From the IMG/VR virus record IMGVR_UViG_3300009082_000017, positions 1-64,000 of that record: DNA of 64,000 bases. One strand, given 5' to 3'. A program made the translations under genes and the position numbers. Below the pieces are notes generated by a model, which was not told where the DNA came from, did no database searches, and saw nothing but the letters and a program-made list of their open reading frames with translations. Shown in pieces: positions 2,352-63,638 of this stretch (the first letter of the stretch is position 1; each line of letters starts with the position of its first letter). The stretch comes from a virus.

Positions 2352-2675
2352 CTTTCCTCCTTTGTGTTATACTAAACAAATATAATAGCAAAAGAAGACT
2401 TGCTATTTGCACCTTCACAACTTTATAATAAATAAGAACAAAATATAGCCATATAAGCTATATTCGCCAATTATAGACAAAAGGGCTATAATGTTAAGTT
2501 ATAGCCCTTTATTACTATAAATGCGCATAATCCATTATTATGTCTTATTATGCGCATATTACTCTTTCCGTTTCGGAAATAAATAATAAAATATACTTCC
2601 GAAAGCGACATTAAATATTGATTTCTCTTCCTAAATTACAATTAATTTCCCATGAAATGTTGATTTTATTAGGTA

Positions 2676-3305
2676 TTAAAAAAACCACATTGGAGACAAT
2701 ATACTTGATAAAATAGGAACTAAAGCCATCCCTATATGCGCATGGTCGCCACTATGATTCCACGTCATTGTTGTGTTAATCCCCGTGGCTACCTTATAAG
2801 AACAAAAAGTGTAATTCCCAGAATAAACATCAGTTTGCCCTACGCCTGGAGTAGAATCAGAAACGAGATAATAAGAATTCCAATCAACAACAAGGTCTCC
2901 GCTGGCAGAATCGGCAACTGTTATATTGGGGATACTACTAGTTGCGCCATCAGTATAAACAGTTCGATGTGGGGTGCTTTGATTTACATTATAAAATGAA
3001 ACTACAAGAAAAGATTCTCCATTCGTAGAATCAGAAGAAAAAGTATAAGAATTTGCACCTATAGGCGGATTTATTAATTGATATAACCTAGTAAAACCAC
3101 GATCATTTACATTTCCTATTGCTGCTAATTCTGTCCATCCAACAGGTTCACCAACATCAAAACCACTACCGTCGCTATGAGCAGATACATACACTACCCG
3201 ATTAGGATAATTAGCAATTGTAAAAGAAACAGTACTATTCCCATACGGCATTGCTTGCCTTTGAACCACATCAATCCCTATAGACGTTCCAGAAATAGCT
3301 GTCAT
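2676..3305 (-). CDS. Putative tail-associated or receptor-binding beta-rich protein
   Basis: 209 aa, S/T/G-rich, at the end of the tail-fibre cluster; AGGTGG SD. Confidence 0.5.
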   Translation of the reverse strand: MTAISGTSIGIDVVQRQAMPYGNSTVSFTIANYPNRVVYVSAHSDGSGFDVGEPVGWTELAAIGNVNDRGFTRLYQLINPPIGANSYTFSSDSTNGESFLVVSFYNVNQSTPHRTVYTDGATSSIPNITVADSASGDLVVDWNSYYLVSDSTPGVGQTDVYSGNYTFCSYKVATGINTTMTWNHSGDHAHIGMALVPILSSILSPMWFF

Positions 3306-3386
3306 TTATGCCACCTAATTACAAATAAATTTATTTTTATTAAATACATAAAAGCTCCATTTCATGGAGTGCGTTTACTATGTTTC

Positions 3387-4973
3387 TCATGGCATATTCC
3401 TAAATGTAGGAGATACTTGCACATTGAGAACTCCCGTTCCGGACGCACTAGTAATAGCCCATACTTTGTCTCCAGTAAAAACAGTATTTAAAGCAGCTAT
3501 CGTCATTGGAGATGCCGATGTTGAAGAATCAAATTCAGAAGCATCTATTGTAACTAAATTGGTAAGCATACTAACTCTAGTCATTGATGAAGCGCTGCTT
3601 CTTAATATATTGAAACTAGGAGAACCAGATGTAGAACTTCCGCTACCATTAGAAGCGCCACAAGACGCAGCTCCATCTGCAAGCTTCCACCCATTCATAT
3701 ATTTTGGAATACGAACATATTGTTCTTCTCCGCCAGCTAGAGTGGTTGTCCCTGTCACCAAAGGTATACAAACTGTTTTAACACCATAATTTGATTGGGA
3801 CAAACCACTTGCCGAAACTAAAGCCGTGGCAGATGATCCAGAAGACACTTGAGTAGCAGAGGCTATTAATCCACTAGATGCAGAAGTTATATGCCCTGTC
3901 GCATCAATCGTAGTACTCGACAAAGTATATGTTCCTGCAACTACTCCAGAAGTATTATGCGTTACATAAGTGCCAGAAGCACTAAGAGGGGAAGATGCAT
4001 TCACATTTACCGCTAAAGTCGATGCAGTGGTATCAGTCGTTATGGTTGTTCCACTACCTGTAATCAATTTTGTATGTAAATAAATTTTAGAAGCTGCGAT
4101 GTTATTTTCAATTGCCATTCCACTACCAGCAGTTATCAATTTGTCATTTGTTAATGTTGAATCAAGACTTCCAAACACGACATAATTAGCAGTAGAGGGA
4201 GCAATAGAAGAAGCTGCTGTTTCAGAATTAATAGTCACAGCCGAAGATGAACTATTAGCAGACAGTGTAATATTGGTTCCAGCAATAAGATTGGCAGTAA
4301 CCGCAATAGTGGATGCACCAGTATTACCAACTAAACCAATACCACTTCCGGCAATAATTTGGGTCTCATTTCTTAAATTTGAACTAAGTTGAGTTACCAA
4401 AAAATAACCATCATTGGTGGACAAACTAGATGCAGAAATTCCACTACCTACAATACCACTAGCAGATCCAAGTAAGATTTCTGTGGCAACTGTTGTTGTA
4501 ACATTAACTTGATCTGCACTGGTTCCATCAACCCACAGCCAATACCCACCTACTAAATTATACATAAAAAAGTGAGGTCTTCCGGCAACTAAATCGCCAG
4601 AAGTTAGGTTCCCCGCGATTCCATTACTTGCAATCTTATATAAAGATTTTATTCCTAAAGAATTAATGTTTAGTGTAGTTGTTCCGGTACTAGTCACATC
4701 TAAAACCAAATTAATAATTTTACCATCTGTGTAAGCGCCAAAATTAGAAACTGTTGCAATATAATTATTAGTTGCTGCTTCTGTCGCATTTGTCAAGAAA
4801 GGTGTACTGCCTTGTAAAGACACGACAGATGCACTAATATTAGTCGCAAATAAATCTATTTTTGTCATATTAGAATCTGTAATATTATCTTGTGCTAAAC
4901 GCCAATCAAGAAACTTTACCGCACTTCCAGCGGCTTGAGTTGTTCCGCTTAACCCCAAAGTTGAAGTTGTCAT
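3387..4973 (-). CDS. Tail fibre protein
   Basis: TTTLNINSLGIKSL fibre motif, repeated IAGSGI/AGTNITL units, GHITSAS; S/T/A/G-rich. Confidence 0.7.
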   Translation of the reverse strand: MTTSTLGLSGTTQAAGSAVKFLDWRLAQDNITDSNMTKIDLFATNISASVVSLQGSTPFLTNATEAATNNYIATVSNFGAYTDGKIINLVLDVTSTGTTTLNINSLGIKSLYKIASNGIAGNLTSGDLVAGRPHFFMYNLVGGYWLWVDGTSADQVNVTTTVATEILLGSASGIVGSGISASSLSTNDGYFLVTQLSSNLRNETQIIAGSGIGLVGNTGASTIAVTANLIAGTNITLSANSSSSAVTINSETAASSIAPSTANYVVFGSLDSTLTNDKLITAGSGMAIENNIAASKIYLHTKLITGSGTTITTDTTASTLAVNVNASSPLSASGTYVTHNTSGVVAGTYTLSSTTIDATGHITSASSGLIASATQVSSGSSATALVSASGLSQSNYGVKTVCIPLVTGTTTLAGGEEQYVRIPKYMNGWKLADGAASCGASNGSGSSTSGSPSFNILRSSASSMTRVSMLTNLVTIDASEFDSSTSASPMTIAALNTVFTGDKVWAITSASGTGVLNVQVSPTFRNMP

Positions 4974-5000
4974 ATTTCTTTCCTCCTCTCTTTATGGGGA

Positions 5001-5498
5001 TTAAACCACAAAGTCCATTTCTGATAAATAATAATCATCTAAATCCGATAAATAATATGTATCCCAATAAGATAGTGTATAGAATACGGCTACGGTTGCT
5101 GTTGCTATAATTTTTATTTTTTTAATAATCAAGTTTGCCGTTGTTATTCTCAATAATTGTCTTAAACCCCCAATAAATTTTATCTTTTTTATAGATACGG
5201 TTTGAATAATGTTATATAATTCTCTCCATACCGCTGTTAACTTTATCTTTTTTAGAGATAAAGTTACAGGTAGATTTTGAAGTAATTTTGGGAATCCCGT
5301 AGAGATTGCAAATTTTATTTTTTTAACAACTAAAGTATCAATAAACCTTAATAATAAACTAGTTTGAGTGATAACAAACTTTATTCTCTTTATTTTTAAA
5401 GTTTGATACCATGCAGCAGAAAAACTAAAATTATCAAGAATAATTTCAAATACTCTAGCAGGAGTTAATTTTACATTAAATGTATGGCGACCGCTCAT
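5001..5498 (-). CDS. Hypothetical tail-region protein with periodic KKIK repeats
   Basis: GGAG SD; K(K/R)IK recurs 5 times about 22-24 aa apart; acidic C-terminus. Confidence 0.55.
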   Translation of the reverse strand: MSGRHTFNVKLTPARVFEIILDNFSFSAAWYQTLKIKRIKFVITQTSLLLRFIDTLVVKKIKFAISTGFPKLLQNLPVTLSLKKIKLTAVWRELYNIIQTVSIKKIKFIGGLRQLLRITTANLIIKKIKIIATATVAVFYTLSYWDTYYLSDLDDYYLSEMDFVV

Positions 5499-5513
5499 AG
5501 GTCACACTCCTTT

Positions 5514-62305: not shown

Positions 62306-62541
62306 AACACTTACACCATGAAATGTCAATTTTATTAGAACAGAAAGGATAAAAATGATAACACGAATCGAACAAACAGCAAAATTATTTTATGATAGTT
62401 ATGGATATGAAAAATCAACAGCAATTATTAATCAAATTGCATTTGTATATCGTGACAATAAAGAGGAAGCAAAATTCTGGTATGATGTTTTTACAGAACT
62501 AACAAAATTGAGAAACTAGATTAACAGAAAAGGAGATATAA

Positions 62542-62919
62542 ATGACCGATTACAAAGTTGATGACATAATTTCATATACGGTGCAAACAGACCCAATAAC
62601 CTACACCTCAAAGATCACAAATATTAGACTTGGTAATGGATATACAGAATACCTAGTATCTAATTATTGTGGAATGAAAGTAGACGGAGTTGTATTTGAT
62701 TTTCAAATAACAAAACCCTCAAAAAAACGATATAACACAATGTCTAATATCGGTCATGCCAAATATGTAGTGAATTATTGTGGTGGTATCAAAAAGCATA
62801 GTGACGGTAGCGACTTCTTTGATATTGCAATTTTCAAGAACAAAAAGAAATTAAATGATTTTCTTCTTGAATTAGTCAATGATGGATATATTCAAGCAAA
62901 AATGGGTATTTATTCTTAA
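62542..62919 (+). CDS. Early hypothetical protein
   Basis: AAGGAG SD; NIGHAKYVVN..DGSDFFDIAIF. Confidence 0.6.
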   Translation: MTDYKVDDIISYTVQTDPITYTSKITNIRLGNGYTEYLVSNYCGMKVDGVVFDFQITKPSKKRYNTMSNIGHAKYVVNYCGGIKKHSDGSDFFDIAIFKNKKKLNDFLLELVNDGYIQAKMGIYS

Positions 62920-63091
62920 CAGAAGGGTATAAACAGATGAGAATAGGTAAAAACGTTATACTAATAGGTTTTTCTAAGCAATTCCGATTTTATAAAACCG
63001 GATTTAGCATGACTGGATTATACTCTTATAGAACAATCATAAGAATCGGATTTATTCAAATTGATATTTTCAAAGATTAGAAAGGATAACC

Positions 63092-63328
63092 ATGAAAAAA
63101 TCATACGAATTTTGGCTCCTACCCTATAACGAATTTCACCAAACGCCTGAACAACCCTATTCAGGTATAACAGGAACACTTAACACGGTCAAGAATTGGT
63201 GCGAGGAGTTATTCTGGACTAACCATAACGCAACCGCTATTCAATATAAATCGGTTGGTGGTAGAATTACTCATACAATGGAACGTGGGGACTTGCCTAG
63301 TTTTTATAAACCTGGACAAAAGGTTTAA
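63092..63328 (+). CDS. Early hypothetical protein
   Basis: AAGGA SD. Confidence 0.55.
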   Translation: MKKSYEFWLLPYNEFHQTPEQPYSGITGTLNTVKNWCEELFWTNHNATAIQYKSVGGRITHTMERGDLPSFYKPGQKV

Positions 63329-63331
63329 TTT

Positions 63332-63565
63332 ATGAAACTACTTCGCAGGCTTGAATGCTTAAAATATCAACTCCACTACACCCTATCAAAACATAAAACT
63401 TATATTTGTGACGAATGTAAACAATCACATATAACAGCAAGTGACAGGATTATCCTCAACGAAAAATTATGTATCTTTGTTGGTGGTGAATGTGGAAGAA
63501 AAGTAATCCAACAAGCAAAAGAAATTTTGAGAAATGGTGTAATTGATCAATTGACAAAGATGTAA
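63332..63565 (+). CDS. Early hypothetical protein
   Basis: AAGG SD; CDEC. Confidence 0.5.
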   Translation: MKLLRRLECLKYQLHYTLSKHKTYICDECKQSHITASDRIILNEKLCIFVGGECGRKVIQQAKEILRNGVIDQLTKM

Positions 63566-63638
63566 TCCCCATGAAACTTTTCTTTCATGGTGTAGATAGA
63601 ACAGAAATTCTATAACAGACAATAACAGGAGGATGACT

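Follow-up and report, generated by a model that had tools for sequence, protein, structure and literature searches.

Why would a phage carry, at the ends of its genes, dozens of copies of one short palindrome, each with a centre of its own? The question is raised by the first 64,000 nucleotides (the window) of IMGVR_UViG_3300009082_000017, a 160,042-bp record of an uncultured virus in IMG/VR, here called G000 as a whole. An initial annotation, made from the letters of the window, had listed 18 palindromes of the form ATRAAA-N6-TTTYAT and had proposed that they are sites for module exchange or genome resolution by a tyrosine recombinase, with operators of a dimeric repressor as the alternative. 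The analysis presented here, extended to the complete record and to its relatives, indicates that the sites are probably double-stranded DNA dyads, bound by a dimer, that serve as recombination joints. A broader proposal is put forward more tentatively, as a possibility to which we give somewhat less than even weight: that a clade of large uncultured SPbeta-like phages performs a natural form of recombinase-mediated cassette exchange, in which ~90 heterospecific dif-like sites and a phage Xer-like recombinase would allow co-infecting relatives to swap cassettes in register, with intragenomic deletion being blocked.

The site array and its anatomy

In the window, ATRAAA-N6-TTTYAT occurs 19 times exactly, compared with 0.65 copies expected, and none of 100 shuffled controls reached 19. 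The 18 copies listed initially all have the correct coordinates and spacers, and the list was one short, since a further exact copy at 8324 had been missed. Across the whole of G000 there are 80 exact sites, or 94 if up to one mismatch to ATGAAA/TTTCAT is allowed. As had been claimed, the 6-bp spacing is strict: at this length we counted 43 perfect and 51 one-mismatch copies, versus 0-1 perfect and 2-7 one-mismatch copies at each of the spacers 3-5 and 7-9. The placement at gene ends was borne out as well, with 86 of the 94 sites intergenic or over a gene edge in a genome whose non-coding share is 15%. Following transcription, a site comes after a stop codon and before the next Shine-Dalgarno sequence; in a few cases one of the codons, stop or start, or even the GGAG is part of the site itself. 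Several are located directly upstream of TTGACA...TATAAT promoters, and most have no promoter.

G000 appears from its genes to be a Firmicutes-type phage, distantly related to SPbeta. Its terminase (window 32995-34842) has 32-37% identity to those of SPbeta-like phages of Bacillus, Staphylococcus, Clostridioides, Lysinibacillus and Thomasclavelia, and a Firmicutes host fits the TTGACA-N17-TATAAT promoters and AAAGGAG ribosome-binding sites (RBSs) of the genome. The minus strand carries the genes between 0.8 and 46.6 kb (structural and lysis genes), and the plus strand those between 46.7 and 160 kb. Megablast with 20 kb of G000 gave zero nucleotide matches to isolate phages. An exact-pattern scan of IMG/VR identified a 143-kb relative, G001, which carries 84 exact sites, and further relatives (G002-G010) were found by a terminase search. 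G001 is collinear with G000 and circularly permuted, with 64-93% identity in patches; only 86 of 265 genes are reciprocal best hits, with a median amino-acid identity of 66%. Pattern scans of metagenome and genome collections returned, among the matches listed, essentially single chance matches, except for one 2.85-kb fragment (L091), and an exact-protein look-up of two cassette proteins led to one other contig only, with the gene order unchanged and no new contexts. Thomasclavelia phage TR-TP1, the closest isolate, is free of over-represented dyads over the whole spacer range of 3-10, so the array is not a general feature of SPbeta-like phages. In the literature we found no paper describing such a site array in a phage.

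Is the selected object the DNA or its transcript? A position table built on 183 sites of G000 and G001 gave the consensus CCC[C/A]AT[G/A]AAA - YnnnnR - TTT[C/T]AT[G/T]GGG, in which inverted ~10-bp arms surround a strictly 6-bp centre, the core architecture of Xer/dif-type sites. The arm extension noticed initially is real and symmetric (CCC[C/A]ATGAAA...TTTCAT[G/T]GGG). The left and right half-sites have near-identical base frequencies, each arm is conserved from position -3 to +6, and the core is symmetric with respect to the direction of transcription.

One explanation places the function in RNA, the sites being intercistronic hairpins with an 8-10-bp stem and a 6-nt loop that act as terminators or attenuators, RNase processing signals, mRNA ends or translational regulators. 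The position in the transcript, between a stop codon and the next RBS, would suit this, as would the symmetric arm changes between lineages and the sites at G000 78518, 92080 and 149535, where GGAG stands in the loop and the start ATG comes from the right arm. However, the variable positions of the putative stem do not covary. Left and right bases at arm position 0 are complementary in 77 sites, versus 90.6 expected under independence, and at positions -1 to -3 complementary pairs are at or below expectation. In the transcript orientation, A.C-mismatched sites (20) and G.U sites (17) are about equally common, and the double variant that would restore pairing, ATAAAA...TTTTAT, is absent from G000 and found once in G001. 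The sites have no U-tract, no terminator was called at those in 46-64 kb, and the Rfam search matched no family besides two tRNAs; these results, with the symmetry of the core relative to transcription, are not those of an intrinsic terminator or a structured RNA. A free loop should, moreover, be the fastest-evolving part of a hairpin, and the centre is the slowest-evolving part of the site (see below). We therefore consider a hairpin function very unlikely. The absence of covariation, the fixed spacing and the independent half-sites indicate that the selected object is duplex DNA, with the signature of a dimeric binder. As read from these base patterns, the sites are recognised as double-stranded DNA, by a predicted symmetric protein dimer, and are not RNA hairpins. 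In G006-G010 both arms have shifted together, to ATAAAA-N6-TTTTAT, the spacer often has T first and A last, and the density of sites is several-fold lower (14 exact copies in 125 kb). A joint change of the arms is what co-evolution of the site with its binding protein would be expected to produce.

Separately, a G+C-rich hairpin with a T-run (AAAGGTGGC...GCCACCTTT) is located at window 730-780, downstream of the open reading frame (ORF) 387-740, and is conserved in G001 as a 51-bp exact match, which indicates that the phage uses ordinary intrinsic terminators elsewhere.

Spacer identity and asymmetry

The centre of the site behaves differently from its arms. An identical 6-bp spacer is present in G001 for 46 of the 94 G000 sites, all in collinear positions, while ~2.5 would be expected by chance, and the expectation that spacers are conserved at orthologous positions is thus well supported. 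Among the positionally matched spacers, besides these 46, at most 5 have one mismatch and at most 5 have two, which amounts to a divergence of ~3-4% per position. The outer arm positions of the matched pairs differ in 18-20%, and the centre is therefore the slowest-evolving part of the site. Changes in the inner arm are found mostly at positions 2, 3 and 10 (27 of 32), and cassettes shared by the two genomes have 75-93% nucleotide identity.

The claim that no spacer is repeated holds beyond the window. Pairs of identical or reverse-complement spacers number 0 in G000, versus 5.2 expected (P=0.006), and 1 in G001, versus 5.7 (P=0.024), the two P-values not being independent because the genomes share half their spacers. 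Spacers with at least two self-complementary pairs are also avoided, in both genomes (8 versus 19.9 expected, P=0.0003). In the overlap region of tyrosine recombinases, identity licenses the choice of partner and asymmetry sets the orientation; centres that are unique, asymmetric and conserved between genomes are as expected of such a region.

The same features bear on whether the sites could be selfish palindromes of REP or MITE type, spread by a transposase (for example of the IS200/IS605 type) and without function for the phage. Many dispersed intergenic palindromes, in a genome with a solo TnpB (OrfB_IS605) gene, would be compatible with this origin. But copy-and-paste spread predicts similar centres, and all 94 differ and are more distinct than chance; the sites are only ~26 bp long, show no hairpin covariation, and keep both their positions and their centres between diverged genomes. 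Unique centres and the lack of covariation likewise set the sites apart from REP/RAYT systems, of which the solo TnpB alone was seen, no search having been aimed at a Y1 (HUH) transposase. A selfish origin seems hardly credible to us, and the RNA-hairpin and selfish-repeat readings are both effectively excluded. The TnpB-like gene itself, which also has a weak Cas12f1-like TNB match, is in an accessory cassette at G000 69364-70575 (L326 13832 onward). Type I restriction targets, parS- or Noc-type sites and replication terminators were considered as well, and do not explain unique, conserved and asymmetric centres at gene junctions.

Joints and cassettes in related genomes

Comparison of G000 with G001 revealed that the joints persist while the cassettes are replaced. 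Of the 44 site pairs examined within 200 bp, nucleotide homology was detectable on neither side in 27, on one side in 12 and on both in only 5. In the alignments, identity stops within a few bases of the dyad, and at sites that form such conserved islands the exact-match tract through the spacer has a median length of 19 bp (range 12-38), a length on the short side for ordinary homologous recombination. Where two shared sites follow one another, the stretch between them lacks any homologous protein in about half of the cases, and such stretches differ in length and in gene number. Consistent with a role as joints, sites are found at 32 of 96 synteny-break junctions, compared with 2 of 29 continuous junctions (odds ratio 6.8, P=0.004).

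How could these joints work? The 10-bp inverted arms and the 6-bp asymmetric centre give the site the build of a dif or lox core, and the sites may act as recombination joints between gene cassettes. The enzyme would most likely be a tyrosine recombinase of the phage itself, and we infer that it binds and cuts at the sites, with the crossover within the spacer. Since each site has its own 6-bp centre, exchange would occur mainly between the same sites, and productively so between copies on co-infecting relatives, or on a phage and a prophage related to it. A pair of such exchanges, at adjacent sites, would then swap the intervening cassette and leave the gene order unscrambled.

A number of observations weigh against this scheme, at least in its strict form. 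The expected fall of gene-content breakpoints at the sites is seen as an enrichment, and 64 of the 96 break junctions have no site. Some 20 further intergenic islands (promoters, leaders) are likewise collinear and kept amid replaced ORFs, so the sites are not the only regulatory-type DNA to be conserved while ORFs are swapped around it. The G000 cassette 64816-65439 is located between CATCTA and TTTCCA, and its 93%-identical G001 homolog between GAACGA and CATCTA. One joint of this cassette maps to a repeated leader, CTTAACAGAYAAT, outside the site; at the other joint a left-arm variant follows the spacer and not the cassette, which suggests that the whole site travels as a unit. In fragment L091, which has three addresses common to G000, G001 and G002, the slot TTGCTC-TGAGAC contains a gene whose G000 homolog is at 122 kb, 49 kb away. 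Spacers in the vertically inherited structural region have drifted, with two differences each in TCTTGA/TCACGA and TTCACG/AACACG; the statistics on spacer redundancy come from genomes with many spacers in common, as said above; and either recombinase, or both, may have no other role than that of integrase in a temperate SPbeta-like phage. The different slots and the crossover in the leader indicate that exchange is not strictly addressed and that short-homology recombination also operates. Strict spacer-addressed exchange, therefore, cannot be the whole story, as short-homology recombination also shapes the genome. The initial idea of same-site exchange directed by unique spacers survives in that spacer identity is kept at the joints, and is challenged by the presence of the same cassette in different slots.

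Repeated TAACAG-containing leaders (for example CTTAACAGAYAATYATAT) are found between sites and the next RBS in window 51750-64000 and in G000 64-77 kb. One G000/G001 cassette junction maps to a leader of this kind, and such leaders thus also act as recombination points. Two attempts to read more from the arms gave little: a hybrid-arm test (G..T then A..C sites, the order predicted for cassettes that came in from A-type phages) scored 9 versus 4.2 expected in G000 (P=0.006) and, without significance, 4 versus 3.6 in G001 and is not relied on, and the comparison of arm differences between homologous and non-homologous flanks, made to place the crossovers, found no difference and was uninformative.

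These results raise the possibility that a dimeric DNA-binding protein uses the sites as operators, roadblocks or insulators, the replacement of cassettes being a by-product of short homology, as with the PeSLs, the promoter/stem-loop units of T4-type phages. The binder could be a recombinase-fold repressor like MrpR of SPbeta, or an unrelated regulator that partitions transcription between cassettes. Independent half-sites at a fixed spacing suit any dimeric binder. The sites come after a stop codon and ahead of the next RBS or promoter, with TTGACA...TATAAT directly after several of them and a second dyad, AGAAC-N4-GTTCT, abutting 7; other regulatory islands are kept amid swapped ORFs, and the crossover in the repeated leader shows short-homology recombination at work. 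Selection against 26-bp direct repeats could, in addition, mimic the non-redundancy of the spacers. There is precedent in the PeSLs (PMC4122927), and SPbeta, a distant relation, has a recombinase-fold repressor that acts on a repeated element (PMC10516654). However, an operator predicts that the spacer is the least constrained part of the site, and it is the most conserved; nor does an operator predict that spacers avoid mutual repeats or self-complementarity. Both recombinases of G000 keep the catalytic residues that MrpR has lost, the SPbeta element (SPBRE) is a 15-bp sequence at ~10 promoters and not ~90 sites at gene ends, and median identity tracts of 19 bp are short for the homologous recombination that would have to replace the cassettes. 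The MrpR-like alternative, raised in the initial annotation, fits the dimeric dyad and is weakened by the slow, distinct spacers. Overall, we regard an operator function with incidental exchange as unlikely, although it deserves serious attention, and favour recombination joints.

The sites of the window are listed here by coordinates and spacer, with their partners in the relatives:

2652-2669, site TGTTGA: same spacer, collinear, at G001 66682; left flank alone homologous
3348-3365, site GCTCCA: with 2652 brackets ORF 2676-3305; identical-spacer partner in G001 not found
8324-8341, exact motif match in minor-tail-protein ORF 6525-9224: without the CC/GG extension, probably not functional
10196-10213, site TACCAA: directly downstream of tape-measure ORF 10226-13051 (minus strand)
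14663-14680, site GAGAAT, one mismatch: between the HNH ORF and the N-terminal tape-measure ORF
17009-17026, site TCATAG: overlaps the ruvC stop
18500-18517, site TCTTGA, core structural region: ortholog at G001 81973 by both flanks (74-78% nucleotide identity), TCACGA, 2 differences
30138-30155, site TTCACG, core region: ortholog at G001 93559, AACACG, 2 differences
35990-36007, site TTGCGA, adjoins tRNA-Thr: spacer identical at G001 101497
38002-38019, site TGTGTG, adjoins tRNA-Pro: with 35990 brackets ORF 36076-37872
38452-38469, site TATCCG: spacer identical at G001 103413
41059-41076, site TTTCTC: followed by a TTGACA promoter-like box on the minus strand
49410-49427, site TGAAGA: spacer identical at G001 112385
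55127-55144, site TACTCA: spacer identical at G001 116988; neither flank homologous
55485-55502, site TCTATC: AGAAC-N4-GTTCT boxes on both sides; identical at G001 117491, the pair forming an island
57732-57749, site TAACCT: identical spacers at G001 119053 and G002 39336
61070-61087, site TAATCC: spacer identical at G001 121535
61769-61786, site GAGTGG: spacer identical at G001 122084, the pair forming an island
62318-62335, site TGTCAA: identical spacers at G001 123235 and G002 43304
63571-63588, site CTTTTC: spacer identical at G001 124652, the pair forming an island

Two of the cassettes in this list illustrate the replacement. The interval 55127-55485 measures 358 bp, versus 503 bp in G001, and that from 61769 to the next site 549 bp, versus 1151 bp, with no homolog in either case. 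As annotated, the pairs 2652/3348 and 35990/38002 each bracket one ORF; the 598-amino-acid ORF between the latter has no Pfam match and no G001 ortholog. The spacer TGTTGA is also present in G004 and G006, where its flanks are non-homologous; this sharing was rejected as deep conservation and is treated as chance.

The two sites that had been said to flank tRNA genes do so, each within ~20 nt of its tRNA on the minus strand: 35990 abuts tRNA-Thr (TGT, 35895-35969) and 38002 abuts tRNA-Pro (TGG, 38033-38107). The second dyad, AGAAC-N4-GTTCT, has 11 copies with up to one mismatch in window 41035-63611, versus 1.8 expected, among them 55471-55484, 55504-55517, 57751-57764, 61055-61068, 61755-61768 and 63598-63611; the 7 copies that directly abut palindromic sites comprise 6 in the early region and 1 at 41035. 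We take this dyad to resemble the Gram-positive LexA (Cheo) box, GAAC-N4-GTTC, with an operator for a phage repressor as the alternative. In the structural region, the tape-measure gene is split on the minus strand into ORFs 14733-15845 and 10226-13051, which match consecutive parts of one PHROG profile and are separated by an HNH endonuclease ORF (13263-14558). TR-TP1 has the same split layout, which is probably due to an intron or to insertion of the homing endonuclease.

Candidate enzymes and known systems

Which protein might act on the sites? G000 encodes two PF00589 proteins, and no serine recombinase was found in it. The genes concerned are:

15909-16943, minus strand: tyrosine recombinase, 344 amino acids, candidate site-binding enzyme (PF00589, 2.9e-14; PHROG integrase)
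17015-17482, minus strand: RuvC-like resolvase (PF02075, phrog_159)
G000 125647-126597, outside the window: Xer-like recombinase, 316 amino acids (PF00589; R-K-HxxR-H-Y read by eye)

The initial annotation had described the 344-amino-acid protein as an intact tyrosine recombinase and, in agreement with this, the R, K, HxxR, W and Y motifs can be read by eye in its translation. It has no sequence match in the PDB; its relatives in G001 and G006 have 48-49% identity, and weaker ones are present in G003 (26%) and G008 (31% over half the protein). The 316-amino-acid protein, whose relatives are also found in G001 and G006, matches archaeal XerA best (4a8e, 5hxy), then XerD, and IntI4 weakly. XerA-type enzymes act alone on dif sites, which consist of two inverted arms and a 6-bp spacer. 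G000 therefore encodes two putative tyrosine recombinases with a complete catalytic set, each a candidate only for the cognate enzyme. From these matches, the Xer-like protein appears to be no weaker a candidate than the 15909-16943 protein, and in the mechanism proposed above it would be the better one, with the 344-amino-acid protein as the alternative. Whether the Xer-like recombinase acts on the sites, choosing partners by matching spacers, we judge an even call.

RuvC had been proposed as the partner that resolves stalled junctions. The site at 17009 indeed overlaps the ruvC stop, 66 nt from the recombinase start at 16943, but the search found no RuvC homolog in G001 and none in G006, two genomes that carry the array. 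RuvC is therefore not a conserved partner and is not counted in the system; its gene is probably just adjacent. At the position of the G000 RuvC gene, the neighbour of the recombinase in G001 (79257-80186) is the best match of G000 120512-121408 (L323 513-1409), a gene of GIY-YIG/NUMOD3 homing-endonuclease type located outside the window.

Clean exchange of modules at phage gene boundaries has been debated since the modular theory, in which modules were proposed to be separated by 'linker' sequences. Opinion then moved towards random illegitimate recombination with subsequent selection, the PeSLs being one partial example of a linker. Joints distributed over a genome, each with its address and recognised by a protein, would be a concrete and testable mechanism for module exchange. 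If correct, the proposal would provide a dedicated molecular basis for modular phage mosaicism, extend the principle of Xer and dif modules from a few plasmids to viruses, and give a single recombinase dozens of natural orthogonal spacers, a set of practical interest where cassette exchange is to be multiplexed. Should the sites be operators instead, they would still be an unusually clear case of conserved intergenic protein-binding sites that act as recombination joints.

Among known systems, SPBRE of SPbeta is a 15-bp element in ~10 promoters, bound by MrpR, a recombinase-fold repressor that lacks catalytic residues (PMC10516654). The array shares with it a repeated intergenic element in a distantly related phage (terminase identity 32-37%), and differs in its ~90 sites at gene 3' ends and junctions and in having two recombinases that look catalytically intact from their motifs; placement, number and retained catalytic motifs do not match an operator of the SPBRE/MrpR type. 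The PeSLs, the nearest parallel known in phages, are conserved units at the boundaries of insertions, deletions and replacements in T4-type phages, for which homologous or site-specific recombination has been proposed (PMC4122927). Both are short conserved intergenic motifs with the same association with breakpoints, flanking, in the case of the PeSLs, small and mostly ORFan genes of hyperplastic regions. Unlike the PeSLs, which combine a promoter with a terminator stem-loop, the sites described here are bare 26-bp dyads with unique centres, without selection for a hairpin and mostly without promoters, and the phage is an SPbeta-like siphovirus of a Firmicutes-type host group, not a T4-type phage.

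Integrons offer another parallel, with single-gene cassettes that each have an imperfect inverted repeat just past the stop codon, and with a tyrosine recombinase. An attC site measures 57-141 nt; its structure is conserved and not its sequence, and it recombines as a folded single strand. In contrast, the sites of G000 have a fixed length, conserved arm sequences and no pairing covariation, which is not the structure-based recognition of a single-stranded hairpin; no attI or Pc platform accompanies them, and IntI4 is a weak match. Engineered heterospecific lox and FRT sites come closer in logic, with identical arms, mutually incompatible spacers that confine each site to recombination with its twin, and ordered replacement of a cassette by means of two different sites. 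They are a laboratory design with 2-4 spacer variants, whereas the array would be a natural system with ~90.

Closest in mechanism are the dif modules of Acinetobacter Rep_3 plasmids, which are bounded by pdif sites in which 6 bp separate the XerC and XerD arms (PMC13141974). Experiments there have shown recombination only when the 6-bp spacers are identical or nearly so, and one dif module takes the place of another if their spacers agree at the left and also at the right boundary (PMC13141974), which is the logic of the paired exchanges proposed above. The array resembles these modules in its ~10-11-bp arms, its 6-bp spacer, its position at the boundaries of small accessory modules and its many different spacers per replicon. 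It differs from them in belonging to a phage genome and not to a plasmid, in having ~90 sites and not a handful, in being known from sequence, in its truly palindromic arms, and in a putative Xer-like recombinase that is self-encoded and not borrowed from the host. Truly palindromic arms argue for one protein acting as a homodimer, as XerA, XerH and XerS do, with no alternation of C and D modules.

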